From: an uncultured Actinomycetes bacterium
GTDB taxonomy: Bacteria > Actinomycetota > UBA4738 > JBBDTT01
DNA: 64,000 bases
Assembly (NCBI GenBank): GCA_963742735.1
Contig: CAVUMN010000003.1
Coordinates: 192,001 to 256,000 of the forward strand
Direction: 5' to 3'
Of the stretch, positions 35,634 through 56,250 are shown in pieces. The notes beneath the pieces were generated by a model that was not told the DNA's origin, made no database searches, and saw only the letters and a list, made by a program, of their open reading frames with translations. Numbering within the stretch: position 1 is the first letter of the stretch; each line of letters opens with the position of its first letter. The position numbers were made by a program, and so were the translations under genes.

Positions 35634-35654
35634 CGTCGTGCCTCCTCTGGGTGT

Positions 35655-37648: not shown

Positions 37649-38109
37649 TCCTCTCTCATGGTTGCGGTCGAGGTGATCACGACGCCGCCCTCGGGAAAGG
37701 GCTCATCGGCGCTGACCATCCCGGCGATCCAATTGGCCACTCGGCCCAGCGGACCGAACGACACGTTCTTCGTCACCGTCACGGTGATCTGCGTCCCCGG
37801 GAAGGCGTTCGCCGGGTCCGGGCTCACGGTGACGGAGTCCAGGGGGGCGTCGGAGATCCGGCGGATGTAGGCCACCACGGCGGCCGCGTCCGGTCGGAAC
37901 CGATAGACGCCCGGGTTCTCGGGGTCCTGGTGGGCGGCGGTCGCGTATCGCGCCCCCGCCTCGGACACCTGGTTCATCTGGATGTAGCCGATGACGGAGG
38001 ACACGACGGGGACCGCCGTCATCACGATGAAGACCATGATCGGCAGGAACAGGGCGAACTCGATCGCCGCCGTGCCTCGCTGGTCCCGGATGCGGCGCCG
38101 CAGGCTCAT
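37645..38109 (-). CDS. tadE: TadE-like pseudopilin
   Basis: QRG/TAAIEFALFLP...AGARYA. Confidence 0.88.
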   Translation of the reverse strand: MSLRRRIRDQRGTAAIEFALFLPIMVFIVMTAVPVVSSVIGYIQMNQVSEAGARYATAAHQDPENPGVYRFRPDAAAVVAYIRRISDAPLDSVTVSPDPANAFPGTQITVTVTKNVSFGPLGRVANWIAGMVSADEPFPEGGVVITSTATMREE

Positions 38110-38540
38110 TCGCGCCTCACCTCCGCCTCGGAGCTGATGGTCAGGGTGCTCGGGATCTCCTCGCCCCAGCCGAAGGCGCGAAGCGGGGCGAACAGGGCGT
38201 AGACCGGGTTGGCGACCTCGTAGGTGACGACGACCTTGAAGGGGGCGCCGCGGGTCGAGCCGCTCGGGGACGTGATGGTGACGGTGGAGGGGGTCAGCAG
38301 CGGGGTGGAGGTGTCGACGGCCTGGAACACCTCGGCGTTGGTCGGGTAGGCGCGCAGGTTGGCCGACGAGGGGATCGAGGCGTAGCGCGCGCCCTCCTGG
38401 GCCCCGCGGTCAAGGATCGTCTTCGCGACCCCGACCCATCCGCCGAACAGGACCAGGCCCACGACGGCGAGGAAGATCGGCAGGACGAGAGCGAACTCGA
38501 CCACGGCGGCGCCCCGCTGCTCGGACCGAAGGCGGGTCAT
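38106..38540 (-). CDS. tadE: TadE-like pseudopilin
   Basis: QRG/AAVVEFALVLP...EGARYA. Confidence 0.88.
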   Translation of the reverse strand: MTRLRSEQRGAAVVEFALVLPIFLAVVGLVLFGGWVGVAKTILDRGAQEGARYASIPSSANLRAYPTNAEVFQAVDTSTPLLTPSTVTITSPSGSTRGAPFKVVVTYEVANPVYALFAPLRAFGWGEEIPSTLTISSEAEVRRE

Positions 38541-40226: not shown

Positions 40227-40931
40227 CTATCGATTCGGGCTGCCGGTGATCAGATAGACCATCACGTAGTGACAGGCGGTCGCGACGACCACGAAGACGT
40301 GCCAGATCTCGTGGTACCCGAAGGAGGCCGGCCACGGATCGGGCCGCTTGCGAGCCAGGACGAGGGACCCGACGGCGCTGAGACCCAGCCCCACGAGTCC
40401 GAGCTGGGCTTCCGTCGGCGTCAGCCTCTCGAGGAGCGGGGGGATGATGAACAGGGCCAGTGCGCTCAGGAAGGAGTACAGGAAGGCTCCGAACGCCCTG
40501 ACCGTGTCGAATCGCGTGAGCTTCAGCGTGATCCCCAGGGCCGCACCGCCCCACTCGATGCCGAGCACGATCCAGCGGAGCCAGCCGTCGAGGGCGATCA
40601 GGGCGACGGGCGTGTACGAGGCCGCGATCATCACGTAGATCATCGAGTGGTCGATCCGCTGGATCGATCGGATCCCTCCGAGTCGCCAGGCGCCTCGGTG
40701 GTGGCCCGCGCTGCTCAGATACATGCAGGTGAACGCGGTCGCGAACACCGCGGCGGCGAACTGGCCGGCGGTCCCCCGGGCGTGCAGCACGAGGATCACC
40801 CCCGCCGGGATGGATACGTAGACCCACGTCTGGTGGAGCCGCCCTCGATGCCGGGGCTTGCCGTGAAGTCGGTCGGCCACGGAGACCACCGCGACCGCCT
40901 GATCCGCCGGGGTCTCGCCCCCGTCCGTCAC
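40227..40931 (-). CDS. Hemolysin III / PAQR-family membrane protein (start uncertain)
   Basis: KPRHRGRLH, SAGHH, RIDHSMIY..IAASYTP, PDPWP..FGYHEIWH..V..A..CHY. Confidence 0.9.
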   Translation of the reverse strand: MTDGGETPADQAVAVVSVADRLHGKPRHRGRLHQTWVYVSIPAGVILVLHARGTAGQFAAAVFATAFTCMYLSSAGHHRGAWRLGGIRSIQRIDHSMIYVMIAASYTPVALIALDGWLRWIVLGIEWGGAALGITLKLTRFDTVRAFGAFLYSFLSALALFIIPPLLERLTPTEAQLGLVGLGLSAVGSLVLARKRPDPWPASFGYHEIWHVFVVVATACHYVMVYLITGSPNR

Positions 40932-40945
40932 CTCCGGGCGGGGCG

Positions 40946-42367
40946 TTACGAGTTGCCTTCGGCGAGCCACCGCAGCGCACCGATGCTCGGCTGGAACAGA
41001 TACTCGCCACCGCGACATTCGGTGAAGCTCGGCTGGGGGTGGAGGAAGAAGGGCGGGTTCCCGGGGATCGTCATCTTGTCGTTCTCGTCGTCCGGCTCAC
41101 CGATCAGGAAGTCTCGGTCCTTGCCCACGCCGAGCGCGTCGCCGTCGTCGACCCAGAACGCCTGGATCGTCTCGAACTGCCGCTCGATGCTCGTGCAGAA
41201 GCACACGAAAGCCAGTCCGCGCTCCTGGCCGTCATCCTCCAGGGCGCCCTCCGCCAGGGGCGGTCCGTACGACCTCCCTCGCCGGATGATGCGGTGGCGC
41301 CGGGTGAGCTCGCCGCCGTAGAACTCGCGCGAGTCGCGAGGATTGGCCCGCCGGATGTGCGCGCCGAGCGGGCAGCGGAGCCCCTGGTCGTCCGGCTCGT
41401 AGGTGAAGTCGTTGATCCGGTTGGGATCGCCCGAGATCGCGGGGTCCGGCCGGTCGGGCGAGAGCTCGAGCGGGGTTCCGTCGCGCCACCGGCCGACGAT
41501 CTTCGCCGCGAGCATCTCGGGACCACCCGGATAGGCCTTCCCCTTCTCCTCGAGGTAGGAGCGGAATCCGGCGACGTTCGTGGCGAGCTTGCGAAACACC
41601 ATGAAGGTGGCGTTGCGGTCGAACGGGGCGGCCGGGGCGGCGGGGATGCCCTTGTCCTCGTCCACGTACCCGAACACGAAGTCGCCCGTGGCCAGGGCGC
41701 GCCAGCGACCCTTGCCCGTCGGGTGGCCGTCTCCCGGCCGTGGGGTCACGCCGCTTCCCTCGATGGCCGGCTGGGAGATTCCGTCGATGAAGCCGAAGTG
41801 GTCTCGCCCGCCGGGCAAGGCCTCCGCGCGCTGCTCGAAGAGGACCGTCGTCGATCCCGAGGACTGTCCGATCTGGTGCAGCTGATCGCGGCGCGCGTCC
41901 AGCCGTTCGTCGTCGACCGCGTACACCGTCACCAGCGCGTGGACCTCGCCGCTCCCCAGGCCCGGATCCCAGCGCTCCGGCGCGCTCGGCCCTCGGTCGC
42001 CGAGGCGAGCCGCCCGCGCGGCCATGCCCTCGCGAAACTCCGGCGGGAACGTCTCCAGGATGGCATCGGACACCCCGAGCGCCTGCAACCCGGCATAGGT
42101 GAAGGCAACCTGCATGGCGGTTGGAGGAGGGTCGCCGGTCCACGGCTCGGCCGTGGTGATCTGGGGCAGCATCCCGCGCAGCAGCTCCCGCGCGCGATCG
42201 GGGTGGTCGATGCGAAGGAAGACGTACGCCGCTGTCGGGTAGGTGTAGCCGCGGAGGACGTTGCCCTGCAGGTCGGCCAGGTCGACGTTCGCGGTCTCGC
42301 CCTCGCGAACGGGGAGGTCCGGCGGCCGTCGAACGGGCTCGGTCTTCGTCTGCCCCTGATCAGCCAT
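40946..42367 (-). CDS. DyP-type peroxidase, copy 1
   Basis: DLQGNVL, FGFIDGISQP (GxxDG), proximal His AHIRRANPR, distal Arg IIRRGRSY. Confidence 0.92.
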   Translation of the reverse strand: MADQGQTKTEPVRRPPDLPVREGETANVDLADLQGNVLRGYTYPTAAYVFLRIDHPDRARELLRGMLPQITTAEPWTGDPPPTAMQVAFTYAGLQALGVSDAILETFPPEFREGMAARAARLGDRGPSAPERWDPGLGSGEVHALVTVYAVDDERLDARRDQLHQIGQSSGSTTVLFEQRAEALPGGRDHFGFIDGISQPAIEGSGVTPRPGDGHPTGKGRWRALATGDFVFGYVDEDKGIPAAPAAPFDRNATFMVFRKLATNVAGFRSYLEEKGKAYPGGPEMLAAKIVGRWRDGTPLELSPDRPDPAISGDPNRINDFTYEPDDQGLRCPLGAHIRRANPRDSREFYGGELTRRHRIIRRGRSYGPPLAEGALEDDGQERGLAFVCFCTSIERQFETIQAFWVDDGDALGVGKDRDFLIGEPDDENDKMTIPGNPPFFLHPQPSFTECRGGEYLFQPSIGALRWLAEGNS

Positions 42368-42921
42368 CAGCTCTGTCCCTCCCCGAAGGTGGCGTAGAAG
42401 CGTCGATGCAGTTCCTCGGCGTCCAGACCCTGCGCCGCGATCGCGAAGTCGACGACTCGCCGCCGGGCGTCGAGGCTCTCCAGGACCTCCGGAACCGACC
42501 CCTGAAAGCTCGAGGCGAACGACGACGAGAGCAGCTGGTGAGCGCGCATGTAGCGCTTGAATGCGATGCGGTCTGAGGTCCCGGGATAGCCGATGCAGTG
42601 GCTCCACCACGAGTCCGCCTCCGCGGGAAGCCGCTCGCAGATCGCGTCGAGGAAGGCCTCGGCGTCGCCGCTGATCGTGGCCGTGAACACCATGTAGTTC
42701 GTGGTCAGGTGGTCCGGCTTCACCTTGGGTCCCGGATGCACCAGGTGGTCGAAGATCTGCAGGCGCGAATAGTGGAGCTGTTCGAGCCGCGCCAGCGGGC
42801 TGGCTTCCCCCCACGCGAGCGCGTCGATGGCCTCGCGCGCGGCGGTCTCGTGACCGGGGGTCACGGGCGCGAAGACGGTGAGCGCGTAGTGGACCCCGTC
42901 CTTGTTCCCCCGCTCACCCAT
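42367..42921 (-). CDS. DyP-associated hypothetical protein B1
   Basis: LTVFAPV...LHYSR...FLDAIC...WW..C.GYPG; TGATG overlaps on both sides; paralog at 51942. Confidence 0.85.
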   Translation of the reverse strand: MGERGNKDGVHYALTVFAPVTPGHETAAREAIDALAWGEASPLARLEQLHYSRLQIFDHLVHPGPKVKPDHLTTNYMVFTATISGDAEAFLDAICERLPAEADSWWSHCIGYPGTSDRIAFKRYMRAHQLLSSSFASSFQGSVPEVLESLDARRRVVDFAIAAQGLDAEELHRRFYATFGEGQS

Positions 42922-43532
42922 CAGAGCGACCTCTGGTAGGTGGTGAGGAACCGGTCGTACGCCGTCTTGAACTCCGCCGGGCTCAGCCCGCGACCCTCCG
43001 CCTTCAGGGCCTCGAGACCGGTGCGGACCCGTAGCGCGTCCCGGACGATCTCCGGGCTCGCCTCGGGGTAGGCGGCGTAGTAGTGGCCGCCCTCCATGCT
43101 GTTGCGGGCGATCCAGGCCTTCAGCGGCTCGGCCGGGGGCGGCTTCGGGAAGTGGAAGCCCCGTCCCCACACGAACCCGATCACCTGAGGGATCACGTAG
43201 GCGAACGCGTCGATGTAGTTCTGCCACGACTGGTCGAAGTGCGCCTCGAAGAAGATGTAGTTGTAGTTGAGCTTGGTGTGGTCCTTCGGATCACCGACGT
43301 TGGGCATCGTCTTCTTGAGCACCGCCGTGCGCATGAAGGCGATCCGCCCCACGACGACCAGGCGCTTGTTCAGCTTCGGGAAGTACTTCGCCAGCCACAG
43401 CACCACCCTCAGGGGGCGCACCCACGCCGGCCGGACCGGCGTGTACAGGGAGAGCCCGGTCATGCGCCCGATCGTGTTGCCGGGAACGGGACCCGCGTTG
43501 CGCGGGAGTGGACTCGTCAGGGCCTGCGCCAT
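42921..43532 (-). CDS. DyP-associated hypothetical protein A1
   Basis: LNY.Y.FFE..FD...YIDAFAYV.P...WG.GF.FPKPPP..AYPEA; GGAGG RBS; paralog at 51319. Confidence 0.85.
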   Translation of the reverse strand: MAQALTSPLPRNAGPVPGNTIGRMTGLSLYTPVRPAWVRPLRVVLWLAKYFPKLNKRLVVVGRIAFMRTAVLKKTMPNVGDPKDHTKLNYNYIFFEAHFDQSWQNYIDAFAYVIPQVIGFVWGRGFHFPKPPPAEPLKAWIARNSMEGGHYYAAYPEASPEIVRDALRVRTGLEALKAEGRGLSPAEFKTAYDRFLTTYQRSL

Positions 43533-43536
43533 CGAT

Positions 43537-44994
43537 CTACCTCCCCCATAGTTGCTTGCCTTCCACCTGCCGGCGCGCGTGATTCGGGTTGCCGAACCGC
43601 TCGTAGTACTCGAGCTCGAGATGCGAGAACTGTGTCCAGATGCCCGGAAGGTAGAACGCGTCGGTGTGCGCGGGGAACCGTCCGTACGTCTCGTACAGAT
43701 AGCGACAGATCTCCTTGGCGTACTTGATCGCTTCCGGCGGATGCGGCTTGGCGTTGCGGAGGTAGGTCTCCGCGCTGTCGCGATCCTTGTACGCCAGACC
43801 GAACATCTCGACGTCCCCGTAGATCCCCTTCGGGCCCATCTTCTCCTCCAGGAGCTGGTCGACGGCCGCATCCATGTCCGTGACGTACGGTGGGCACAAT
43901 CCCTCGAGCACGCCGTCGATCCCGACGTAGTTCGGCTGCGAGGCCGGAACCGGCGGCATCCGGCGCCAGCGCCCCTTCGGCGTCTTGGTGGTGTGCTGTC
44001 GGAAGCCCAGTCCGAGCGCCTGGTTCTCGGGATCGCGCTGCATGATGTGCGGGGCCAGGGGAGCGCTGTGCACCCAGCCGCCCAGGCGGAGGGCCTCGCC
44101 GGTCAGCAGCAGGTTCTGCAGCAGCAGGAACGCCTCGTAGTCGGTGCGCGCCGAGCCGAGGGCCCCCATGGGCACGGGCACGTCGGTGGTGACGAATCCT
44201 CCCTTGACCCGCTTGATGCCGCCGATCGGCTGGTAGGGGATCGGGTCGACGAACCCCAGCTTGGCGGCGGCCCACGCAATGCGCTCGACGGGGCCCTTCG
44301 GATGGAACTTCCGCCAGTCATCGACGAAGAGCGGTGCGGCACCCGGCTGCTCCGAAAGCAGGATCAGGAGCGCGTTGATGTACTGCCGGGTGTTGTCGAC
44401 GACCGGCAGGAAGCACGTGGTGCCCGGCGCGTTGGAGTGGTGGGCGTTCCAACCCAGGTAGTAGGGCCACCGGCGCGGGAACGTCATCCGCTCCTCGTGG
44501 ACCTTCACCTTGACCAGGTTCGCGTAGGTGAGCCAGTCGTCCTCGGTGCGGTCCTCCCACCGGCGGGGAATCTGCCGGAAGATCTCCAGGGCGTCCCGGC
44601 CCCACGGGCGCCGCAGGAGCCAGATGCCCTCGTCGTTGATCATGAACATCGTGGTCGCCTGGGCGTTGTCCGGGCTCGGGCCGGCCCGGCCGACGGGATG
44701 CATCATCGACATGCCCATCTCCGGGAAGCCGTCCAACCGGAACAGCGGGCCGTCGTTCATGATCGGCCCCGTCGGCCCCGTGGCGGCGATGAGGATCGCC
44801 TCCTCGAGCGGGGTGACGGGTGACGGCGGATTGGCGCTCTCGTACGTCATCGGCCCGGCGGGCAGCGAGACCCCTTGCGCCACCCGTCGTGTTCGGCGGT
44901 CCTGGAGCGCCTCGGTCAACGGGTAGCTGAAGAGGTCCTGGAGGCCGGCATGGGCCGCCGGTCCGGAGGCCGGGCGCGCGTTCGCTGGATCCAT
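43537..44994 (-). CDS. Large hypothetical protein, tentatively nitroreductase-like fold
   Basis: 486-aa ORF with host-like codon use; LTEALQDRRTRR, GPSPDNAQ and LLQNLLLTGEALRLGGW resemble nitroreductase FMN-binding segments. Confidence 0.7.
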   Translation of the reverse strand: MDPANARPASGPAAHAGLQDLFSYPLTEALQDRRTRRVAQGVSLPAGPMTYESANPPSPVTPLEEAILIAATGPTGPIMNDGPLFRLDGFPEMGMSMMHPVGRAGPSPDNAQATTMFMINDEGIWLLRRPWGRDALEIFRQIPRRWEDRTEDDWLTYANLVKVKVHEERMTFPRRWPYYLGWNAHHSNAPGTTCFLPVVDNTRQYINALLILLSEQPGAAPLFVDDWRKFHPKGPVERIAWAAAKLGFVDPIPYQPIGGIKRVKGGFVTTDVPVPMGALGSARTDYEAFLLLQNLLLTGEALRLGGWVHSAPLAPHIMQRDPENQALGLGFRQHTTKTPKGRWRRMPPVPASQPNYVGIDGVLEGLCPPYVTDMDAAVDQLLEEKMGPKGIYGDVEMFGLAYKDRDSAETYLRNAKPHPPEAIKYAKEICRYLYETYGRFPAHTDAFYLPGIWTQFSHLELEYYERFGNPNHARRQVEGKQLWGR

Positions 44995-45223
44995 CAATGC
45001 GGGAGCTGCCCCTGTGGCGGGCGCTCGGTCTGGAACGTGCTCGGGCCGCTACGGGGCGCCACAGTCAATCCGGACCCTTCGTCTCGAGAGTAACGATCGG
45101 AAGAAATCTATCGGCGATCTGGGCCCGCGCGCAAGCGCGCGACCCGCCCCCGGGGACGGCTAGCGGTCGCCTGCGCCTGCGTGATACAAGGACCGACGAG
45201 TCCGACGAAACCAACATGAAGGG

Positions 45224-46303
45224 ATGTGGATGAGCGTGAGCGGCGCCCCGGCGCCCTGGACGGGTGCCGCCCCCGAGCACCCGCAGCGACCGCTTCGGCT
45301 CGACGCCCCGCGCCCTCTGGGCGTGACGACGTCGGACGGGTATCGGGTGGGCCTCACCCGCTACTCGGGGGGATCGAAGGGGCCGGTCATGCTGGCTCCC
45401 GGCTTCGGCACCACCACCTACGGGTTCGTCCTCGACACCGTGGAGACGAACCTCACGGAATTCCTGGTCGCGGAGGGATACGACGTCTGGCTTTTCGACT
45501 ACCGGGCCAGTCCCGCGCTGGACTCCGCCGACCAGCCGTACTCGGTCGACGACATCGCCCTGCGCGACTGGCCCGCCGCGGTCGACACCGTGCGCGCCGA
45601 GACCGGAGCCGACAGCGTCCAGGTCGTGGCGCACTGCGTCGGATCGATCTCCTTCCTGATGGCGAAGCTCGGGGGCCTCGAGGGAGTTCGGTCGGCGGTG
45701 TCCTCCGCGCTCACGACGCACCCGGCGCCGCCCACGTCGCTCGCCCTGAAGACCGGCCTGCACTTCTCCTCCTTCCTCGAGGGGGCGGGGGTCGACACGA
45801 TCACCACCGACTACGAGGGCGACTGGGACGACCGGGTGATCGATCGACTCATGCACGCGTATCCCACGCAGGAGCGCTGCGAGCTCCCGGAGTGCCGGCG
45901 GATCCTGTTCATCTACGGCGAGGTCTTCGACCACGACCAGCTGAACACCGCGACCCATCAGGCGGTCCCGGAGATGTTCGGGATGGCGAGCCTGAGCCCG
46001 TTCCGCCACCTGGCCCGCATCATGCGCAAGGGGCACGTCGTGAACACGGAGGGGGAGGAGACCTACCTCACACACCTCGACCGGCTGGCGTTCCCCCTGA
46101 CGTTCATCCACGGGGCGAACAACCGGATGTTCCTCCCCGAGGGGACCAAGAACACGTACGACATCGTCAGGGAAGCCAACGGCGACCACTGGTACAAGCA
46201 CCACGTGATCCCCGGCTACTCCCACATGGACGCGTTCATCGGCAAGGACGCCTCCCGCGACGTCTTCCCGCTGATCCTGCAGGAGCTCGCCGAGCACCAG
46301 TGA
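45224..46303 (+). CDS. Alpha/beta hydrolase with a Cys at the nucleophile elbow
   Basis: GPVMLAPG, GYDVWLFDYRAS, VAHCVGS, GYSHMD; colinear with the C-terminal domain of 47694-51101. Confidence 0.88.
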   Translation: MWMSVSGAPAPWTGAAPEHPQRPLRLDAPRPLGVTTSDGYRVGLTRYSGGSKGPVMLAPGFGTTTYGFVLDTVETNLTEFLVAEGYDVWLFDYRASPALDSADQPYSVDDIALRDWPAAVDTVRAETGADSVQVVAHCVGSISFLMAKLGGLEGVRSAVSSALTTHPAPPTSLALKTGLHFSSFLEGAGVDTITTDYEGDWDDRVIDRLMHAYPTQERCELPECRRILFIYGEVFDHDQLNTATHQAVPEMFGMASLSPFRHLARIMRKGHVVNTEGEETYLTHLDRLAFPLTFIHGANNRMFLPEGTKNTYDIVREANGDHWYKHHVIPGYSHMDAFIGKDASRDVFPLILQELAEHQ

Positions 46304-46310
46304 CGTGGAG

Positions 46311-46330
46311 GCCCCGCCGGGGGGCGGGGT
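46311..46330. terminator. Hairpin between convergent genes
   Basis: gccccgcc-gggg-ggcggggt. Confidence 0.5.
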
Positions 46331-46343
46331 GCGCGGCGGCCCG

Positions 46344-47683
46344 TCAGCCGATCTCGTGCGTGCTCAGGTCGTTGATCGTGCCGGTCCAGGCCTCGAACGC
46401 GGGGGCGCCCTTCACGAGCTGTGACCCCGCGTGCTCACCCTCCCGGTAGAAGATCGTGTACGTCAGGCTCTTCCAGCTGAGCCAGTCGTCACCCGCGTCC
46501 CCCTGCCGGTGGACCGGACGCCACGTGCCCGTGTTGATGTAGATGCGCTCGTGGTCGTTCGGAGGGTCGCCGACGAAGCCGACCGGCCGCACGTCGGCCG
46601 CGTGGGTGTGTCCGTACACGACGTACAGCACGCGGCCGGCGGTCTCGACGTCGCGATCCAGGCGACGGAACTCCTCGACCGCCTTTTGGCCGAACGCCAC
46701 CTCCTGCTTCAGCTCCGCCTGGTCGATCCCCTTCAGGGAACGGTCGAACTTGGTGAACTTGAGGACCTGCAGGGCCTTCATCAAGATCTGGAGCCGGTCG
46801 GCCCGGTCGAACGGGTTCGACATGCGGTCGTGCTTGTCGAACCAGCCCTTCACGAACGGAACGCTCTCGAAATCGTCCGCGGCCCCGCGCATGGCCTCGT
46901 TCAGCATCGCCTTGACGTCCTCGTCGAAGCGGTCCGTGTGGTAGCCGAGCCAGTGGATAAGCGACATCATCGGCCGCACGTCGAAGAGGTTCTGGAACTT
47001 GTGGTACAGCCCGATGCGGTCGGGGTGGTCCTCGGGCATCACCTCCAGCACCTTCAGCGGCAGCTTCGAGGCCATCTCGCTGGCCAGCAGGTCGCCGATG
47101 GGGATCTTCATGTAGTCCTCGAACGGGATCTGGACGTGGTCGCGGATGCTGAACGCGTCGCTCTCCTCGAAGTTGAACGGGTCCCACTCCTGGCCGTGGC
47201 GGGCATACACGCCGTAGTCGAGGTCCAGGAACGTGTGGTCGAACGGAGCGTCGCTCGGAGGGATGCCGAAAACCTCCCGCGCGCGGACCCGGAGCGTCGG
47301 ATACAGGTTGACGAGCCGGTCGTGGTTGCCGGGGACGAAGACGCGCTCGGGCTCCACCGGAAAGTCGAACTGCTCGCCAAGGCTCCCCTGGAAGATGTCG
47401 AAGGTCGCCTTGTTCTCCGAGACCACGCTCTCGAACACCTTCGTCACCGCCTCCAGGGAGGGGTTCCCCCCCACGGGCGCTCCTCGGGATCGATCGTGAA
47501 CCACTGCTCCGTTCGGATCAGGTCGAAGATGTCGCCGAGGAACACGATCTTGATGTCCTTGGCGCCGGCCTCCCGGGCCTTGGTACCCAGGTCGCGGAAG
47601 ATCCGCTGAAACACGTCGACGCCCAGGTAGTGCTGACCGCTCGACCCGTCCATGAGATGGAGATCGCTGACGATGATGAGCAC
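46344..47683 (-). pseudogene. Calcineurin-like metallophosphoesterase split by a frameshift in a G7 run (47466-47472)
   Basis: GTG 47683 with GGAGG RBS. SDLH and GDIFD lie in one frame; GNHD, HG, GHTH and NTGTW lie in another. One extra G joins them (PWGG-NP). Confidence 0.85.
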
Positions 47684-47693
47684 GCTGTCCTCC

Positions 47694-50600
47694 CTACTCC
47701 TGTTCCAGTGCCTGGAGCACGATCGGGTACACGTTCTTGGCGGCGCCCTCGCCGATGAGGACATCTGCATGACCATTGCCGGGGATCAGGTGCCGGCTGA
47801 CCCGCGCGGCCGGGTTCCCCTGCAGGAGCGTCTCCACGGTCGTGGCGCTGCCCTCGGGGAGGAACACGACGTCCTCCTCGCCGTGCACGAACGTGAGGGG
47901 CAACCCGAGCCGGTCGAGGTGGGGGAGGTAGACGTCCTCTCCGGTCGCCGAGACGAGCCGTCCCCGCGCGGCCATCAGGCCGAGGTGGTCGAGCAGCGTG
48001 GGATCGGGTGCTCCGTACAGCTCCGCCAGGGCGCCGTGGGTCGCCGGCGCCAGGCCCGTGTGTGAGAACTGTGGCCCGTAGAGGACCGAGATCCTGGCGC
48101 ACGCAGGGCTGCCACAGTCGTCCGCCGCATCCCGGCCGAGCGTGGCGCCCGCCGCGTCGATCAGGGGGATCCACCCGCCACGATCCACGCCCAGCATCGC
48201 CGACGCGGAGTCGGCCTGAAGCGTCTGAAGGGCCGCGGGGACGAACAGGCCGCCCCGGGCGCCGTCGCCCGTGACCGCGGGGTGAGCGCTCGCGCCGATC
48301 ACCACGGCGGCGCGCACTCCCTCGGTCCCTCCGAGCAGGCTCATGAGCAGGGTGAGCCCGCCGGCGCCGTGGCCGACCGCCTGCACGCTGGCGGCGGCGG
48401 TGCGGCTCAGGACCTCCTGGATCGCGGCGGGCCAGTCCTGCGTCGCGACGTCGTCCGCGTTCGAGGCGTCGCGGGCCCCGGGGAGGATCACGCTGTCCCG
48501 CCAGTCCAGGAGCCAGACGTCGAACTTGTGGGCCACCAGGTACTCGACCAGGTTGGGCTGCACGGTGTCCAGGGCGAACACCCGGCTCCACGTCCCCACG
48601 TCGTGGGCGAGGATCACCGGGCCGCGGGTCCCTCCCTCGAACCGGGTCAGACGCAGCCCGACGCCGGCGTCCGATCGGACGGGGAACACCTCGGGGGTCG
48701 GAGCCCGAAGCGGTCGCAGCTTGCGCGGCGGGACGTCGGGGTCGAGGAAGGACGCGCGGGGGGGCCGGTCCTTGCCGCCCCCGAACCCCAGGTAGACGTG
48801 GGCCAGCTCGCCCATGAAGAACCGGATGAACTTCGTCTGGGTCTCCAGGCGTTCGACGATCGAGCCGGTGTTGATCGCGACCGTGCCCTGCATCTGGCGC
48901 AGGAAGTCGAGGGGCGCGATCTTCAGCAGTCCGCGGCCGGCGAGCGGCGCCGCGTCGTCCTCACCGTCGTAGACGGAGATGTACAGGGTGGTCGTGTCGG
49001 CCCAGGTGTCCGGCCCCGGGTCGTCGCGGACCACCTTGTAGCCGTCGAAGAACAGGCGGCGGCCCTCCTCGGTGGACAGGTGCATGCGATACCGCATCTC
49101 CCGTCCCCGGCCGCGTTCCGGATCCGGGGCCAGCAGGTTGAACTCCCCCTTGGTCACGGCGATCGGGTCGCGGGAGAGATGGGGAGCGACGACGGAGCCC
49201 ACGATCTGGGCGGCGTGGCGGTCGTCGCCCAGGAGCCCGTCGAGGTCCTGGCTGGCGATCGTCAGCGTGAACTCGAAGGAGGACCCGTTCGCCTCGCCCT
49301 GCGCGGCTCCCTCCGCGTAGTCGTCGATCGGGAGCGTGGACACATGGCCGTGCATCCGCTCCGTGAACCGGACCCCGGGCTTGCGGGCGGGCGGCGCGGC
49401 GCGCGGCGCCGGTGGCTCGGCGGGCTCCGTCCAGCCGCGCTCGGAGGTGAGCAGGGCCACCGATCGTTCGGCCACCGCCGAGATCGTGAACGAGGGGTTG
49501 ATCCCGAGCGAGCGCGGCACCACCGACCCGTCGCAAACCAGGAGCGAGTCGTACACCGCGTCACCCTCTCCCGTGAACACCTGGCCGCGGTGGTTCACCG
49601 CACCCGTCGAGGCGTCCTCGCCCATGGGGCACCCGCCCAGCGGATGCACGGTGACCAGGTCGTGCCCCAGGAGGCCGCTCCAGACCGGGTTCCGGATGTA
49701 CCGGCCGCCGTTCGCCTCGGCGGCGCGGCGCATGACGTCGTCCAGCCGCGCCCATCGGGCCTGCTCTCCCACGCCCGGCCACACGACCCGCGACCGGTCG
49801 TCGTCCAGGACGATGCGGCCGCCGGCGTCGTCGTGCGCCATGACCAGGTAGATCTGCGAGTGGTTCACGGAGCCGGAGTACGGACCGTTCACCAGGCTGT
49901 CGAGCTCGTGCTGCGTCTCGACGGGCGAGGCCGCGCCGGGGGTCACATCGACACCGGCGGTCCGCGCCGCGAGGGCGAACGCCTCCGGCAGCGCGCCGGC
50001 CAGCGCCCCGGGGATGACTCCCTCCTGGACGATCAACCCCTGGTCCAGCTCGGGCTGCTCGCGGAGGTCGATCACGCCCGTGATGCAGGGACCCACCGGC
50101 TCTCGGCCCGCCGGGCTCTGCGAGCCGAACCCGACGGCGTTCACCGGCTGCTCCCCGTTGTAGGCGAACCCGATCAGGTCACCGTTCCCGGAGAACCTCG
50201 ACCCGACGGCCGACGAGAGGGGGAGCCCGCGATCCCGCGAGCGAAGGAGGATCTCCGTCGAGCCGAGCGTGCCGGCGCCGAGCACGACCACGCCGGCCCG
50301 GACGAAGAGCTCCGGCGCGTGGAACCGCTCCCGTCCGGCCTGCATGGGCTGGTAGTGGACCAGCCAGCCGTCGTCGGACCGCTCGAGGGACCGCACCGCC
50401 GCCTGCGTGAAGATGTCCGCGCCGTGCGCGTAGGCGTCCGGCAGATAGTTCATGAGCGTCGTGCTCTTGGCGGCGTAGTTGCATCCCGAGACGCAGTCGC
50501 CGCACAGCATGCATGCGCTCTGCTGGACCCCAACGGGGTTGGGACCGTCCTCGTACCGCACGTTGATCGGCGTGCGGGCGAACGGCGCCCCCAGGTGCGC

Positions 50601-51101
50601 CGCGGAGCGCTCGAGGGCCTCCAGCTTCAGCAGCCGCGGCCAGTCCGCGGGAAAGGCCCCCGGGGTGAGCATCGCCTCGGCGCGCCGGTAGCCCTGCTCC
50701 AGGCCTCCCTCGACGTCGGCCCGGAACGCTTCCGGCCACTCGGGGGCCTGCAGCACCCGGGGCTCGGGGCGCATGTAGACGTTGGCGTTGATGAGGGAGG
50801 TCCCCCCCAGGCCGCACCCCACCAGGACGTGCATGTCCTGGTTGGCATGGAAGTCGAACATTCCGACGTGGGAACCGATATGGCCGGCGGGGGCGTCGAG
50901 CTGAAACTCGAGGGCCGCCTCCAGCTGCGTGTCGGGGTACTCGCCGGGCCGGATCTCTCTGCCGCGCTCGAGGACGCAGACCCGCCGCCCGGCGCGTGCC
51001 AGCCGAGAAGCGGCGATGCCTCCACCGTAGCCGGACCCCACGACGACGACGTCGTAGCGGTCCCCGATGTTCTGGAGCGGAGAGGAGATCGCCGAGATCA
51101 T
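47694..51101 (-). CDS. GMC oxidoreductase (cholesterol oxidase-like) fused to a central domain and a degenerate alpha/beta hydrolase
   Basis: VVGSGYGG, LGGTSLIN, CMLCGDCVSGC, TVHPLGG, DGS..P..LGINP..TI; C-terminal hydrolase has GHGAGG. Confidence 0.92.
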   Translation of the reverse strand: MISAISSPLQNIGDRYDVVVVGSGYGGGIAASRLARAGRRVCVLERGREIRPGEYPDTQLEAALEFQLDAPAGHIGSHVGMFDFHANQDMHVLVGCGLGGTSLINANVYMRPEPRVLQAPEWPEAFRADVEGGLEQGYRRAEAMLTPGAFPADWPRLLKLEALERSAAHLGAPFARTPINVRYEDGPNPVGVQQSACMLCGDCVSGCNYAAKSTTLMNYLPDAYAHGADIFTQAAVRSLERSDDGWLVHYQPMQAGRERFHAPELFVRAGVVVLGAGTLGSTEILLRSRDRGLPLSSAVGSRFSGNGDLIGFAYNGEQPVNAVGFGSQSPAGREPVGPCITGVIDLREQPELDQGLIVQEGVIPGALAGALPEAFALAARTAGVDVTPGAASPVETQHELDSLVNGPYSGSVNHSQIYLVMAHDDAGGRIVLDDDRSRVVWPGVGEQARWARLDDVMRRAAEANGGRYIRNPVWSGLLGHDLVTVHPLGGCPMGEDASTGAVNHRGQVFTGEGDAVYDSLLVCDGSVVPRSLGINPSFTISAVAERSVALLTSERGWTEPAEPPAPRAAPPARKPGVRFTERMHGHVSTLPIDDYAEGAAQGEANGSSFEFTLTIASQDLDGLLGDDRHAAQIVGSVVAPHLSRDPIAVTKGEFNLLAPDPERGRGREMRYRMHLSTEEGRRLFFDGYKVVRDDPGPDTWADTTTLYISVYDGEDDAAPLAGRGLLKIAPLDFLRQMQGTVAINTGSIVERLETQTKFIRFFMGELAHVYLGFGGGKDRPPRASFLDPDVPPRKLRPLRAPTPEVFPVRSDAGVGLRLTRFEGGTRGPVILAHDVGTWSRVFALDTVQPNLVEYLVAHKFDVWLLDWRDSVILPGARDASNADDVATQDWPAAIQEVLSRTAAASVQAVGHGAGGLTLLMSLLGGTEGVRAAVVIGASAHPAVTGDGARGGLFVPAALQTLQADSASAMLGVDRGGWIPLIDAAGATLGRDAADDCGSPACARISVLYGPQFSHTGLAPATHGALAELYGAPDPTLLDHLGLMAARGRLVSATGEDVYLPHLDRLGLPLTFVHGEEDVVFLPEGSATTVETLLQGNPAARVSRHLIPGNGHADVLIGEGAAKNVYPIVLQALEQE

Positions 51102-51158
51102 GGGCCCTCACAGACGTGGGGCGTGCAGTGGTGGGCTGGGGCGAGCATGTGGGTCCGA

Positions 51159-51282
51159 AGCCTGAAGGGCAGCCCTCGTACCTGTCAAGAGTTGCGGAGT
51201 GGACACCCGCGGACCGTCGAGTTCCGACTCGGGACCCAGGCGAAGTGGCACCTTGTCAGTCCCTCCGGACGCGTAGGACAAT
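51159..51282. promoter_or_regulatory. Back-to-back housekeeping-type promoters
   Basis: Minus strand TTGACA-N18-CAGGCT (51188-51159); plus strand TTGTCA-N18-GACAAT (51253-51282). Confidence 0.45.
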
Positions 51283-51318
51283 GCGCCGCCAGGGCAGCGC
51301 AACCGCAGGAAGGGACCG

Positions 51319-51942
51319 ATGAAGCGTCAACCCGCCGCTCCTCCCGGCCCCGGCCGGGCAGCCGAGCCGTCCTCGCGTCGCCGCCGCAACCCCCTGAGCA
51401 GGCTCACCAGCGTGCAGGGGTTCACGCCGATCCGTCCCGCCCTGCTCCCGGTGGTTCGGCCGCAGATGTTCCTGGTCCGCTACCTGCTGCCCCTGCAGAA
51501 GCGAGCCCTCAAGGTGGGCAAGGTCCACTTCATGCGCTTCGTGGTCATGCGGGAGCTTCCCCACGCCGGCGGGAAGGAGATGAGCCAGCGGCTGAACTAT
51601 CCCTACGTCTTCTTCGAGAGCTACTTCGACGGCGAGCTGGGCCACTATCTCGACGCCTTCGCCTACGTGTTCCCGGTCGTGCTCATCCAGGCCTGGGGAG
51701 CCGGGTTCGACTTCCCCAAGCCGCCCCCCTCGGAGCCGATGAAGGCCTGGGTCACTCGCAACATGCTTCGGGGCGCCCACACGTACTCCGCGTACCCGGA
51801 GGCGACCGTCCAGATGGTGCGGGCCTCGCTGAACGTCCGCGACCGCCTCCGGGAGCTCCTCAGGACCGCTCCCGGCCTGAGCCCCGGAGCCTTCAAGGCG
51901 GCGTACGAGGAGTTCCTGACCGATCTGCAGGGCGATCTGTAG
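51319..51942 (+). CDS. DyP-associated hypothetical protein A2
   Basis: Paralog of 42921-43532 (LNYPYVFFESYFD, YLDAFAYV, GFDFPKPPP, AYPEA). Confidence 0.85.
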   Translation: MKRQPAAPPGPGRAAEPSSRRRRNPLSRLTSVQGFTPIRPALLPVVRPQMFLVRYLLPLQKRALKVGKVHFMRFVVMRELPHAGGKEMSQRLNYPYVFFESYFDGELGHYLDAFAYVFPVVLIQAWGAGFDFPKPPPSEPMKAWVTRNMLRGAHTYSAYPEATVQMVRASLNVRDRLRELLRTAPGLSPGAFKAAYEEFLTDLQGDL

Positions 51943-52499
51943 TGGGCGAGCGTCGCAACCGCCGCGGGATCCACTACGGGCTCACCGTGTTCACGCCGAT
52001 CGCCGAGGGCAAGGAGGCCGAGGTTCGGGCGCGGATCGAGTCCCTGCAGCCCGACGAGGACAGCCCGTTGGCCGGCCTCGACTCCCTGCACTTCGCGCGC
52101 CTCGTGATCATGGACCGCATCAACGCGTTCGGGCCGAAGCAGAAGAAGCCCGACACCCTGAAGTACCCCTACCTGGTGTTCACCGCCGTCTTCGACGGCG
52201 ACCTCGACCGGTTCCTGGACGCGATCTGCGACCGCATCCCCGATGCGGCCGACGACTGGTGGGGCGCCTGCGTGGGGTACCCCGGGACCTCCGACCGCCG
52301 GGCGTTCGCCGACTACATCCGAGCGCACCAGATCGACGCGGCCGTGTTCGAGGGGGCCGAGCAGAAGTCCACCGTGGCCGAGCGTCTCGCCAGCCTGGAT
52401 CTGCGGGACCGGGTCATCCGGTTCGCCGGCGAGGGACAGTCGCTCGACCCGGCCGCGCTCAAGGAGCGCTTCCTGGCCTCGTTCGCGGGAGACGCATGA
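51942..52499 (+). CDS. DyP-associated hypothetical protein B2
   Basis: 3' end of ORF 48282-52499; GTG in a TAGTG overlap; paralog of 42367-42921 (FLDAIC, C.GYPGTSDR..F..Y.RAHQ). Confidence 0.85.
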   Translation: MGERRNRRGIHYGLTVFTPIAEGKEAEVRARIESLQPDEDSPLAGLDSLHFARLVIMDRINAFGPKQKKPDTLKYPYLVFTAVFDGDLDRFLDAICDRIPDAADDWWGACVGYPGTSDRRAFADYIRAHQIDAAVFEGAEQKSTVAERLASLDLRDRVIRFAGEGQSLDPAALKERFLASFAGDA

Positions 52500-53908
52500 G
52501 CGAGGCGACGCCGACTCGGCTCGAGGGCCGGCCTCCCGAGCTGGGGCGGCGCCCGCCCGAGCCGGCCGCGGTCGACCTTGCCGATCTGCAGGGCAACGTC
52601 CTTCGCGGCTACACGTACCCGACCGCCGCCTACATCTTTCTGCGCATCGACGACCCCGCCCGGGCCCGGACCCTCCTCGGCTCGATGCTGCCGCAGGTGA
52701 CCACGGCCGAGCCGTGGTCGAACGGGGGGCCGCACACCGCCATGCAGGTCGCGTTCACCAACACGGGACTGCAGGCGCTCGGCGTGTCGGAGAGCATCCT
52801 CGAGACGTTTCCGCCGGAGTTCCGCGAGGGGATGGCCGCCCGAGCGGAGCTCCTGGGCGATCGTGGCCCCTCGGCGCCCGAGCGATGGGACCCGGGGTTG
52901 GGCACCGGCGAGGCGCACGTCCTGGTGACCGTCTACGCGGACGACGACGCGCATCTCCAGGAACGGCGGGCGCAGCTCCACGAGATCGGCCAGGCCGCCG
53001 GCGCGTCGACGGTCGTCCACGAGCAGCGTGCCGCGGCCCTGCCCGGAGGGCGGGATCAGTTCGGATTCTTCGACGGGATCGCCCAGCCGGACGTCCGGGG
53101 CAACGGGGTCCAGGCGCGGCCGGGGGACGGCCACCCGAACGGCAAGGGGCGGTGGCGGTCGCTGGCCACCGGCGAGTTCCTCCACGGCTACCCCGACGAG
53201 GACGGTGGGCTCCCCGCCGCCCCGGCGGCCCCGCTCGATCGCAACGGGACGTTCGCGGTGTACCGCAAGCTCGCGACGGACGTCGCCGGGTTCCGTGCCT
53301 ACCTCCATGAGCGCGGGCAGCACTATCCGGGTGGAGCGGAGATGCTCGCGGCCAAGATCGTCGGCCGCTGGCCGGACGGCACCCCGCTGGAGCTCTCTCC
53401 GGACCGGCCCGACGCGGCGATCTCCGGCGATCCGAACCGGATCAACGACTTCACCTACGCCGACGACGACGCCGGTCTCCGATGCCCCGTGGGCGCGCAC
53501 ATCCGCCGTGTGAACCCTCGCGAGTCCAAGGGGTTCTTCGACGGCGCGCTCAGCCTGCGGCACCGCATCATCCGACGCGGCCGCCCCTACGGGCCCGCGC
53601 TCCCGGAGGGGGCCCTCGAGGACGACGGCCAGGACCGCGGGCTCGTCTTCGTCTGCTTCGAGGCGAGCATCGCGAGGCAGTTCGAGATCATCCAGGCCCT
53701 GTGGATCGACGACGGGGATCCGTTCGGCCTGGGTCGGGACCGAGACTTCTTCGTCGGCCAGCCGGAGGGAGACGACGGCAAGATGACGATCCCCGGACGC
53801 CCGCCGTTCTTCCTGACGCCCCAGCCGGGGTTCGTGACGTGCCGGGGCGGCGAATACCTCTACCAGCCGAGCCTGACGGGCCTCCGCTGGCTCGCCGAGG
53901 GGGGCTGA
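52496..53908 (+). CDS. DyP-type peroxidase, copy 2
   Basis: FGFFDGIAQP, AHIRRVNPR, IIRRGRPY; ATGA overlap with the upstream gene. Confidence 0.92.
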   Translation: MSEATPTRLEGRPPELGRRPPEPAAVDLADLQGNVLRGYTYPTAAYIFLRIDDPARARTLLGSMLPQVTTAEPWSNGGPHTAMQVAFTNTGLQALGVSESILETFPPEFREGMAARAELLGDRGPSAPERWDPGLGTGEAHVLVTVYADDDAHLQERRAQLHEIGQAAGASTVVHEQRAAALPGGRDQFGFFDGIAQPDVRGNGVQARPGDGHPNGKGRWRSLATGEFLHGYPDEDGGLPAAPAAPLDRNGTFAVYRKLATDVAGFRAYLHERGQHYPGGAEMLAAKIVGRWPDGTPLELSPDRPDAAISGDPNRINDFTYADDDAGLRCPVGAHIRRVNPRESKGFFDGALSLRHRIIRRGRPYGPALPEGALEDDGQDRGLVFVCFEASIARQFEIIQALWIDDGDPFGLGRDRDFFVGQPEGDDGKMTIPGRPPFFLTPQPGFVTCRGGEYLYQPSLTGLRWLAEGG

Positions 53909-53914: not shown

Positions 53915-54802
53915 CTACTTCGTGCGCCCGGCCTTGTCGTCGAAGGCCTGGCCGGTCGCGCCGAGGACGCCGGCCAGCAGGTTCGTCAGCTCCATCGGGA
54001 TGACGAACTTCGTGGACGGTGACAGGCCGATCTGCTTGAGGGCCTCCAGGTACTGAAGGCTCATCGTGTTCGCGTCGATCCCCTTCGCCGTCTCGAAGAT
54101 CTTCTGCAGCGCGAGCGCGAAGCCCTCGGCCTGCAGGATCGCGGCCTGACGAAGACCCTGGGCGTTGAGGATCGCGGCGTCCTTGTTGCCCTCGGCGATG
54201 GTGACCGCGGCCTCGCGCGTGCCCTCGGCCTCGGTGACCACGGCCCGCCGGGTTCGCTCGGCGGACATCTGACGGGTCATCGCGTCCAGGACGTCGGGCG
54301 GGGGCAGGATCTCGCGGACCTCGACGTTCGTCACCTTCACGCCCCATCGCTCGGTGACCTCGTCGAGCTTCGCGCGCAGCGTCTCGTTGATCTGGTCGCG
54401 CTTGGCCAGCACATCGTCCAGGGACATGTCGCCGACCACGCTCCGCAGGGTCGTGGCCGCGATCGACTGGGCGGCGCCGGCGAAGTTCTGGACCTGGATC
54501 ACGCTCATCGCCGGGTCGACGACCTTGTAGAAGACGATGAAGTCGATGTTGATCGAGGCGTTGTCCTTCGTGATCGCGGTCTGCGAGGGGATCTCCAGGT
54601 AGAACTCGCGCAGGTCGACCCACACGCCCTTGTCCACGATGGGGATCAGGATCACCAGGCCCGGGCCCTTCGTCCCGATGGCCCGGCCCAAGCGAAACAC
54701 CATCAGCCGCTGGTACTCGGGGACGACCTTCAGCGCCGCGCGCAGGAACAGCAGCACGAACAGGACGACGACGCCGATGATGATCAGGCTGGTCGGACTC
54801 AT
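53915..54802 (-). CDS. SPFH/band 7 (stomatin-like) protein
   Basis: FRLGR...GPGL, ITKDN, TTLRSVVG, WGVKV..VE, QM.AER.RRA. Confidence 0.95.
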   Translation of the reverse strand: MSPTSLIIIGVVVLFVLLFLRAALKVVPEYQRLMVFRLGRAIGTKGPGLVILIPIVDKGVWVDLREFYLEIPSQTAITKDNASINIDFIVFYKVVDPAMSVIQVQNFAGAAQSIAATTLRSVVGDMSLDDVLAKRDQINETLRAKLDEVTERWGVKVTNVEVREILPPPDVLDAMTRQMSAERTRRAVVTEAEGTREAAVTIAEGNKDAAILNAQGLRQAAILQAEGFALALQKIFETAKGIDANTMSLQYLEALKQIGLSPSTKFVIPMELTNLLAGVLGATGQAFDDKAGRTK

Positions 54803-56148: not shown

Positions 56149-56234
56149 GTCCTCTCCATGATCGCACCCGCGCGCGGACTGCGTGCGGTTGCGGGGCCCG
56201 ATCCGGGAAACGGTGACTCACGGCACCGCACGAG

Positions 56235-56250
56235 GGTGATAATGATCACC
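56235..56250. promoter_or_regulatory. Inverted repeat GGTGAT-N4-ATCACC in the nfeD/ECF divergent region
   Basis: ggtgat-aatg-atcacc. Confidence 0.45.

Follow-up and report, generated by a model that had tools for sequence, protein, structure and literature searches.

Two outward-facing gene cassettes, each encoding two small proteins (named A and B here) and a dye-decolourising peroxidase (DyP), were found in a 64,000-nucleotide stretch of contig CAVUMN010000003.1 from an uncultured Actinomycetes bacterium; this whole stretch is called the window. The left cassette (43532 to 40946, minus strand) and the right cassette (51319 to 53908, plus strand) flank four genes, which encode a nitroreductase-superfamily-like protein (N), a putative Cys-type alpha/beta-hydrolase-fold protein (H), a metallophosphoesterase and a GMC flavoenzyme fused to two further domains. 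We file the locus as a DyP system with partner genes, which is an already known kind, and its new part is the undescribed family of partner proteins to which A and B belong. In the reading that we favour, and to which we give somewhat less than an even chance, the DyP and A/B form the core, H, N and the GMC enzyme act upstream of it on a hydrophobic molecule that probably derives from a lipid, a pump transports this molecule or its product, and a flavoenzyme may supply the peroxide.

The genes of the window (G+C content ~71%) were called from third-position GC frame plots together with start-codon lists and start context, and these models reproduced exactly the coordinates given in a first-pass annotation of the same DNA (Table 1). 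Start and stop codons overlap at every junction within the cassettes, again as had been claimed, the four overlaps being 1, 1, 1 and 4 nucleotides (nt), and each cassette is translationally coupled. The stop codon of N lies 4 nt ahead of the start of the left A gene (A_L), a short gap with no overlap. The left and right copies are 46% identical for A (85/185, E 3e-60), 52% for B (94/181) and 74% for DyP (343/465). In the DNA itself, the two DyP genes make up an inverted repeat of 1344 nt (40956-42299 and 52558-53901, 76%), which is far above chance, and shorter inverted-repeat arms lie over the A genes. The absence of an obvious signal peptide on the enzymes, noted in the first-pass annotation, was also seen in a Kyte-Doolittle scan, a heuristic and not a signal-peptide predictor, in which no enzyme had a 19-residue window above 1.6 or a hydrophobic N-terminus; the only hydrophobic products were the neighbouring PAQR and SPFH proteins.

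Neither A nor B matched a Pfam or NCBIfam family at E<=0.01, and neither gave a meaningful match to a PDB sequence. The search for B homologues returned 189 proteins; none of the 120 matches listed has a Pfam domain, and those named by their source are called 'hypothetical protein', as are the A and B genes of Granulicella tundricola in RefSeq. When the profiles of A and B were aligned with each other by hhalign, the probability was 99.8% (E 4.6e-29 over 177 columns), and on this profile evidence the two are remote paralogues within one family, which is absent from Pfam and NCBIfam. Of the right copies, B_R keeps every column that is invariant in the B alignment (A1) and A_R every column invariant in the A alignment (A3). 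The idea that A and B are split halves of a DyP-like protein was rejected, there being no profile similarity to DyP. A search with the B profile for longer proteins found nine, which were mapped by domain: five consist of two A/B-type domains in tandem (~420 amino acids, aa), and in three a B-type domain precedes an entire DyP (768-788 aa). These architectures are evidence, short of proof, that the two paralogues function as partners of each other and that they work on the DyP or together with it. The large merged open reading frames (ORFs) at loci L028 and L033 were discarded as DyP fragments joined to unrelated genes by the ORF caller, and L079, with either a B-DyP fusion or a miscalled stop, was left unused.

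The conservation of the unit was followed in contigs of one genome per species, where the B-profile search gave 149 relatives; the best 80 loci, from 54 Actinomycetota (mostly Thermoleophilia), 20 Acidobacteriota and 6 Gemmatimonadota, were analysed with flanks of up to 10 kb per side. A lay directly upstream of B in 80/80 loci, and DyP came directly after B in 73 of the 77 with room for it, the misses being L007, L029, L031 and L050. N was present in the flank of 35/80 loci and adjacent to A in 30/77, and H was found in 33/80. The GMC enzyme or its middle domain occurred in 16/80 loci, namely in 15 of the 35 loci with N and 1 of the 45 others, a count that is a lower bound since several matches sit at the very edge of the flank. 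MMPL transporter genes were found in 24 loci, 23 of them N-loci, and cytochrome P450 genes in 29, of which 10 stand directly after DyP. The Acidobacteria triads have no conserved neighbours beyond A-B-DyP. The first-pass annotation had expected its core genes to travel with A-B-DyP; this held for H and N within one clade (support 99, 35/80 loci) and in part for GMC (15/35), and it was not borne out for the metallophosphoesterase, an orthologue of which was detected in 1/80.

The DyP tree was built from 72 rows, from which matches covering less than 80% or containing stops had been excluded. Its two clades, 'A-B-DyP only' and 'N-linked', have support of 99 each, and the two DyPs of the window are sisters inside the second of them (97). 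The trees of A and B cover loci L001-L057 only, include rows of paralogue cross-matches and were used for the sister relation of the window copies; here the A copies were sisters (97), in spite of the long branch of A_R, and so were the B copies (78). Since the DyP, A and B copies are each sisters, the mirror arrangement is read as a duplication in the window's own lineage, and the symmetry that headed the first-pass annotation is not a design feature of the system. A second, inverted cassette was seen in 4/80 loci, and the second cassettes of L015, L019, L023 and L052 form a group of their own in the B tree (99).

The two peroxidases carry the Pfam domains DyP_N (59.9 and 62.2 bits, cut-off 27.5) and Dyp_perox_C (22.3 and 20.2 bits, cut-off 20), and they pass the NCBIfam model TIGR01413 (114.8 bits for DyP_L and 102.7 for DyP_R, cut-off 100.5). 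The nearest solved structure to DyP_L is DrDyP of Deinococcus radiodurans (8re3, E 8.4e-95), and its top 20 PDB matches comprise DrDyP, fungal D-type DyPs, AnaPX and DyP2, with proteins of the EfeB/YcdB types matching only at E>1e-3. Because their nearest solved relatives are DrDyP, the fungal D-type enzymes, AnaPX and DyP2, the window DyPs are assigned to class V (C/D-type). The pocket residues described for DrDyP, H324, D189, R348, L373 and F375 (PMC10820274, section 2.1), are all conserved in DyP_L as H337, D195 (in the motif GFIDG), R362, L385 and F387, and DyP_R carries the same haem-pocket motifs. In 31 A/B-linked DyPs, H337, R362 and F387 do not vary at all, and D195 hardly does. In domains, nearest relatives and pocket residues alike the window proteins have the sequence of a class V DyP, and haem binding and peroxidase activity are predicted for both. 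They share domains, length and the lack of a signal peptide with the class V enzymes DrDyP (8RE2/8RE3), DyP2 of Amycolatopsis sp. 75iv2 (4G2C) and AnaPX of Anabaena (5C2I). Unlike these known class V DyPs, the window unit is duplicated and linked to N, H and GMC genes, and the GXXDG motif is full in the window proteins whereas its fifth position is Met in DrDyP (PMC10820274).

The AlphaFold model of B_L (predicted local distance difference test score 86.1) has a beta-alpha-beta core and a helical C-terminal extension. Its best Foldseek matches were ABM/SchA-like proteins (WhiE-ORFI, AbxO) and IsdG-type proteins, with probabilities of 0.96-1.00, and the modelled fold of B resembles the ABM-type alpha+beta barrels only weakly; no curated ABM-type sequence model in Pfam, NCBIfam or the PDB sequences matched A or B. 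ABM/IsdG-type barrel proteins normally act as dimers, and two-domain forms also occur among ABM proteins. The beta-alpha-beta core of the B model may be shared with these dimeric barrel proteins (IsdG, ABM monooxygenases, WhiE-ORFI, AbxO), and tandem two-domain versions likewise exist in the A/B family; unlike ABM proteins, A and B carry an extra three-helix C-terminal extension and are about twice as long as the minimal ABM domain.

Two other readings of the locus start from these folds. One is haem or iron handling, with A/B as IsdG-type haem-degrading or haem-carrying barrels and a DyP comparable to the EfeB/YfeX group. The IsdG structures among the fold matches, the residues His50 and Arg53, both invariant in B, and a TonB-dependent receptor gene after the Granulicella triad agree with it. 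This reading appears very improbable, as the peroxidases are class V and not EfeB type (23 bits against a cut-off of 428 for TIGR01412), no conserved iron or haem transporter was found in the 80 loci, and the His aligned with His50 is kept in neither A_L nor A_R. The other is the tailoring or detoxification of an aromatic polyketide or quinone, in which N would be a quinone reductase, A/B ABM-type cofactor-free oxygenases, DyP an anthraquinone-cleaving peroxidase and MMPL the exporter. In its favour are the best fold matches of B, which are polyketide ABM/SchA-like proteins, the SnoaL-like cyclase genes and P450s of several related loci, and the preference of DyPs for anthraquinone dyes (PMC13188919, PMC8395514). 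The window itself, however, has no SnoaL or P450 homologue, and no polyketide synthase or nonribosomal peptide synthetase domain was detected among the 20 other window genes scanned; the fold matches are weak, and the neighbours in other phyla point to fatty-acid enzymes and not to aromatic pathways. We consider the aromatic reading unlikely.

The window N protein has no Pfam (PF00881) or NCBIfam match. PF00881 was matched weakly by 22 of 57 members of the N family (best E 4.5e-5), and the family profile gave 16 weak matches in the PDB, 14 of them named nitroreductase or flavin reductase; the best was 1bkj (E 1.2e-4), and the only two at E<=1e-3 cover ~40 residues. The family comprises 1215 representative clusters at E<=1e-3, and Atlas searches with N and a homologue returned only 'hypothetical protein' clusters, one of them with 16% Nitroreductase. 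N also has an Arg-rich N-terminal motif, RRTRR, which we take to be typical of the nitroreductase/flavin reductase family. The label 'nitroreductase-like' of the first-pass annotation is reasonable at the superfamily level, and N is predicted to be a divergent, double-length member of the nitroreductase (flavin mononucleotide, FMN) superfamily: its family profile weakly matches the conserved helix-strand core of FRP (1BKJ) and NfsA (1F5V), but N is about twice as long as these enzymes. H scored 21.2 bits with Abhydrolase_1, under the cut-off of 25.8. Its nucleophile elbow reads AHCVG, with Cys as the predicted nucleophile, and Cys was found at this position in 9/9 free-standing H proteins checked. 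Assignment of H as a polyhydroxyalkanoate synthase was rejected (TIGR01838, 21.9 bits against 622.65; TIGR01836, 17.5 against 365.3).

In the 1135-aa fusion, the GMC domain has both GMC_oxred_N (52 bits, cut-off 23) and GMC_oxred_C (43.2 bits, cut-off 24.6). Streptomyces cholesterol oxidases are its nearest solved structures (E ~2e-23), with 1B4V giving the best solved match and cholesterol oxidase also the best NCBIfam model; unlike that enzyme, the window protein has no export signal and carries 575 extra residues, consisting of a middle domain with no Pfam match and a hydrolase-like domain that lacks the nucleophile. Cholesterol oxidase as such was rejected, the equivalog model NF058674 being scored at 144 bits against a cut-off of 850, and the protein is filed as a GMC enzyme. 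The C-terminal domain and H are paralogues (39% identity over the full length, E 6e-80). Among 55 fused hydrolase-like domains (those of proteins longer than 1000 aa plus the window's own), the elbow residue is Cys in 47 and Gly in 6, including the GHGAG of the window.

The architecture of the fusion varies among relatives. Its parts are separate genes in Solirubrobacterales, GMC plus middle domain form one protein in L018 and L030, and Gemmatimonadota have a fusion of middle domain and H directly upstream of N-A-B-DyP. The 1598-aa protein P0301 joins GMC, middle domain, hydrolase and Metallophos (PF00149) in one polypeptide, and such fusions, which tie the parts together, count in favour of the earlier interpretation. 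The possibility that the GMC-middle-hydrolase protein with the phosphoesterase and the H-N-A-B-DyP set are two unrelated modules standing side by side, with no common substrate or peroxide, has to be weighed at this point. The ~1135-aa architecture is widespread on its own (64 matches, including Nitrospira, Archangium and Brevibacillus, and homologues in 127 Ralstonia records), and no GMC gene lies within 10 kb of A-B-DyP in 64/80 loci. At one Ralstonia locus (L082, R. solanacearum megaplasmid CP052103.1, 8905-15613), next to a full-length GMC-middle-hydrolase homologue with 46% identity come genes for a cytochrome c of 628 aa and for a metallophosphoesterase, the latter one gene away from the fusion, and the surrounding 9 kb have no annotated DyP. 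Against two modules stand the enrichment of GMC or its middle domain in N-loci (15/35 against 1/45 others, itself a lower bound), the Gemmatimonadota fusion of the middle domain to H directly upstream of N-A-B-DyP, and the paralogy between the H at the head of the DyP operon and the hydrolase domain within the fusion. We regard two independent modules as improbable. A cytochrome-c peroxidase gene also lies ~8 kb from the GMC fusion homologue in L082.

The metallophosphoesterase matched Pfam PF00149 at 23.7 bits (cut-off 21.5) on a 386-aa part. It is not the intact 386-aa ORF of the first-pass annotation: a run of seven G residues (47466-47472) interrupts the reading frame, and the first 79 codons, which include the DxH motif, are in a different frame. 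The start is a GTG at 47683, 10 nt past the GMC stop and with a GGGAGG resembling a ribosome-binding site; the break could be a homopolymer assembly error or a true pseudogene. A Metallophos gene adjoins or lies near GMC in L006, L009, L011, L018 and L030. Orthology of these GMC-adjacent phosphoesterases across lineages was considered and dropped, none being detectable by phmmer or tblastn.

The transporters and some distant neighbours bear on the substrate. An RND system (OEP, HlyD, AcrB) is found at the Gemmatimonadota locus L006, and in L005 an MMPL gene lies divergently upstream of H-N-A-B-DyP; the MMPL protein of the window is 37.6% identical to it over the full length and, on this resemblance, is possibly the displaced counterpart of the operon-neighbouring MMPL found elsewhere. 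The lipid theme proposed in the first-pass annotation gained independent but indirect backing, from these MMPL and RND neighbours and from oleate hydratase, 3-hydroxyacyl-CoA dehydrogenase and a catalase-related gene beside A/B-like and DyP pairs in distant lineages. The P450 genes of 29/80 loci likewise agree with a hydrophobic substrate.

In the reading we favour, the unit of function would be a cytoplasmic class V DyP with the small A and B partner proteins of the unnamed family. We infer that A and B may pair as a heterodimeric barrel, which would dock on the DyP or hand the substrate to it, and that the DyP would perform the peroxide-dependent oxidation of a hydrophobic small molecule, probably derived from a lipid. 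In the window's clade, upstream enzymes would prepare or recycle the DyP substrate: H, by a Cys-nucleophile alpha/beta-hydrolase or acyl-transferase step; N, as an FMN enzyme of the nitroreductase superfamily acting ahead of DyP; and the cholesterol-oxidase-like GMC flavoenzyme with its own middle domain, together with the phosphoesterase. An MMPL or RND pump would carry the substrate or product across the membrane, and local H2O2 may come from the GMC enzyme or from N; a supply of peroxide to DyP by the GMC enzyme is plausible. Observed directly are the order and translational coupling of the genes, the paralogy of A and B, the conservation of the unit, the fusions, the intact pocket residues of the DyPs and, by the heuristic scan, the lack of export signals, whereas the A/B heterodimer, its contact with DyP, the lipid-like substrate and the peroxide source are inferred.

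Several findings weigh against this scheme. A-B-DyP stands without GMC, hydrolase or N in 45/80 loci, and no N, H or GMC homologue was found in 12 sampled plasmid and chromid loci described below. Because of these two results the accessory set is taken to be clade-specific, the substrate may differ between clades, and the GMC oxidase is not an obligate source of peroxide. The GMC sequence does not separate an oxidase, which releases H2O2, from a dehydrogenase, and the GMC-middle-hydrolase fusion of Ralstonia occurs with no DyP annotated within 9 kb. The GMC-adjacent phosphoesterases of different lineages are mutually dissimilar by phmmer, and their recurrence near GMC could be partly chance, the superfamily being common. 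The fold match of B is weak (Foldseek E 9e-3 or worse, none at E<=1e-3, template modelling score <=0.41), and neither A nor B is related in sequence to DyP itself. The lipid theme draws on neighbour annotations in distant lineages and on transporter families that have non-lipid substrates too. The interpretation given in the first-pass annotation was sustained in part: the conserved A-B-DyP unit stands, and the obligate oxidase, the PAQR protein and the mirror design do not.

The association was also found outside the 80 loci. A plasmid collection yielded 74 records of DyPs that are 28-44% identical to DyP_L, and 16 of them were hand-picked for taxonomic spread and range of identity. In 12/12 loci with DyPs of 34-44% identity (Granulicella, Streptomyces, Rhodococcus, Sinorhizobium, Sphingobium, Novosphingobium, Methylorubrum, Ketogulonicigenium, Brucella anthropi, two Nostoc and D. 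radiodurans), an A/B-family gene lies directly upstream of DyP or within ~1 kb of it, as detected with hidden Markov models built from the A1 and A3 alignments. The weakest detections were L083 (25-28 bits), L087 (30-31 bits) and L090 (26-30 bits), and first hhalign checks gave probabilities of 88-98%. No A/B gene was found in the other 4/4 loci, whose DyPs belong to a remoter clade (28.6-33.5% identity). A ~340-aa protein with no Pfam match stands beside A/B-like and DyP genes in Nostoc (L090, 3862-4890) and Streptomyces (L083, 3968-4981), the two being alike at E 1e-140. Three distant-clade DyPs, of Bradyrhizobium, Mycetohabitans and Nostoc, share another upstream protein of 376-467 aa (L095, 1086-2489; L096, 1356-2486; L097, 1263-2483), with phmmer values of 1e-35 to 1e-48 and no relation to A/B by hhalign.

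In D. radiodurans (L089, NZ_OV024759.1), the A/B-like gene spans 3196-3927 and DrDyP starts at 3929, with 1 nt between them; a catalase-family gene follows DrDyP, and genes for a 3-hydroxyacyl-CoA dehydrogenase and a TetR regulator lie upstream. DrDyP thus has one A/B-like gene immediately upstream, where the window DyPs have two paralogous partner genes. Over the 12 loci, a 'catalase family protein' gene was seen in 7, a TetR regulator in 4, 3-hydroxyacyl-CoA dehydrogenase in 3 and oleate hydratase in 2. In the Deinococcus review PMC6300522, which notes the catalase-like neighbour of DrDyP, the term DR_A0144 for the upstream gene has 0 occurrences; the neighbour itself, DR_A0146, is reported there to be without catalase activity.

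These neighbourhoods might point to general defence against peroxide or oxidative stress, with DyP removing H2O2 or organic hydroperoxides and A/B as stress helpers. The catalase-family gene beside A/B-like and DyP genes in 7/12 loci would suit this, as would the Fur-family and katG genes 4 kb from the Granulicella triad. DR_A0145 is indeed listed among oxidative-stress proteins, but the same source rates it as less important than other peroxidases and describes its catalase-like neighbour as inactive as a catalase (PMC6300522). Moreover, the regulators nearby are of the TetR type, typical of small-molecule pathways, and the dedicated flavoenzymes, hydrolase, P450s and pumps argue for a specific substrate. 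General stress defence is judged quite unlikely.

A broader version of the partner idea can also be drawn from these loci, and we rate it as rather unlikely. Class V DyPs of bacteria would then in general have A/B as their physiological partner, missing so far, which would activate the enzyme or deliver a lipid-derived substrate at cytoplasmic pH. In its ancestral role, the pair would have processed oxidised or hydroxylated fatty acids in concert with the catalase-related protein, oleate hydratase and 3-hydroxyacyl-CoA dehydrogenase, and the window would represent a two-partner, flavoenzyme-fed elaboration of it. Purified on its own, DrDyP is six-coordinate low-spin and inactive above pH 4, which the lack of its A/B partner would explain on this broader view, and the natural B-DyP fusions suggest that A/B would bind the peroxidase.

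Three operon contexts of DyPs are named in the literature covered, namely iron uptake by EfeUOB, packaging of a DyP in encapsulin and the copper pathway of Sco/ECuC/DtpA, and a DyP subclass fused to P450 exists (PMC9719856). In these contexts, as here, the DyP has dedicated partner genes, and there they define its role in the cell (PMC9719856). Their DyPs belong to class I or P and either undergo Tat export or bear a targeting tail for encapsulin, unlike the window DyPs, which are of class V and apparently cytoplasmic and whose partners have no Pfam or NCBIfam model. A parallel for the peroxide supply is the model for bacterial pyranose 2-oxidase, in which a GMC flavoenzyme would feed DyP-type peroxidases with H2O2 and reduce their radical products again (PMC6581175); that model, however, is extracellular and derived in vitro and not from gene linkage (PMC6581175). 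The window GMC enzyme differs from it in being cholesterol-oxidase-like, fused to two domains and apparently cytoplasmic, and its genetic linkage holds for no more than a part of the family.

What class V DyPs do in bacterial physiology is described as 'not yet established' (PMC8395514) and 'still largely unknown' (PMC11107159), and the in vivo activity of DrDyP has been proposed to be governed by interactions with other proteins (PMC10820274, section 2.5). The partner family, which stands beside class V DyPs in at least six phyla and is sometimes fused to them, is a candidate for those interacting proteins. In the literature covered, DyPs for lignin and dye applications were characterised without their neighbour genes, and a required partner or a lipid-type native substrate would, if true, change the use of DyPs in these applications. 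The accessory genes of the window, for the FMN enzyme, the Cys-hydrolase, the GMC fusion and pumps, mark a pathway that has no characterised counterpart. As the first-pass annotation had supposed, no characterised pathway of such composition was found in literature searches, and no description of the partner family or of the gene set was found in these searches, with most subscription journals outside their scope.

Table 1. Gene models and domains of the DyP locus and the MMPL gene, in positions of the window.
Feature	Coordinates	Strand	Length	Remarks
PAQR/HlyIII (TrhA-like) membrane protein	40227-41018	minus		start possibly 40931 instead
DyP_L	40946-42367	minus	473 aa	
B_L	42367-42921	minus	184 aa	
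A_L	42921-43532	minus	203 aa	
N, nitroreductase-superfamily-like	43537-44994	minus	485 aa	
H, putative Cys alpha/beta-hydrolase-fold	45224-46303	plus		AHCVG elbow
Calcineurin-like metallophosphoesterase	46344-47683	minus		broken frame; Pfam Metallophos
GMC fusion	47694-51101	minus	1135 aa	GMC, middle and hydrolase-like domains
Fusion, C-terminal hydrolase-like domain	47694-48701	minus		nucleophile replaced, GHGAG
Fusion, middle domain	48702-49421	minus	residues 561-800	no known family
Fusion, GMC domain, cholesterol-oxidase-like	49422-51101	minus	residues 1-560	GMC_oxred_N and GMC_oxred_C
A_R	51319-51942	plus	207 aa	
B_R	51942-52499	plus	185 aa	
DyP_R	52496-53908	plus	470 aa	
MMPL transporter	59761-62079	minus		Pfam MMPL, E 1.3e-99

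At the edges of the locus, the PAQR gene encodes a member of the Pfam family HlyIII (110 bits, cut-off 26.2) and of the NCBIfam TrhA model NF011669 (121.4 bits, cut-off 80). Depending on the start codon, it has an overlap of 73 nt with DyP_L or begins at 40931, 14 nt past the DyP_L stop. The first-pass annotation had counted it in the left operon; its homologues were found in 0/80 related loci and its link is one of position only, and the SPFH protein on the other side has homologues in 1/80, so that both were treated as neighbours and not as parts of the system. Membership in a defence system was likewise dropped, PADLOC giving 0 matches for seven proteins. No Rfam family reached its gathering score in the 38-58 kb region or in the whole window, no tRNA was found, and scans for promoters and terminators gave no signal above the shuffled expectation.

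Just left of the locus, a Tad/Flp-type pilus gene set (32473-39718, minus strand) comprises two TadB/C-like T2SSF genes, a TadA-like ATPase, a ParA-like gene, RcpC/CpaB, two TadE-like genes and a gene for a 393-aa protein without a Pfam match. On the right, genes for SPFH/Band 7 and NfeD proteins come directly after DyP_R and are followed by those for an extracytoplasmic function sigma factor and a zf-HC2 anti-sigma factor (53915-57664). The MMPL gene lies in a minus-strand segment (59761-63195), downstream of a gene for a PF00756 esterase. Between the anti-sigma factor and MMPL genes, a plus-strand segment (58290-59661) has a low G+C content of 0.61 against ~0.71 and contains two ORFs (259 and 196 aa) with signal-peptide-like or lipoprotein-like N-termini.

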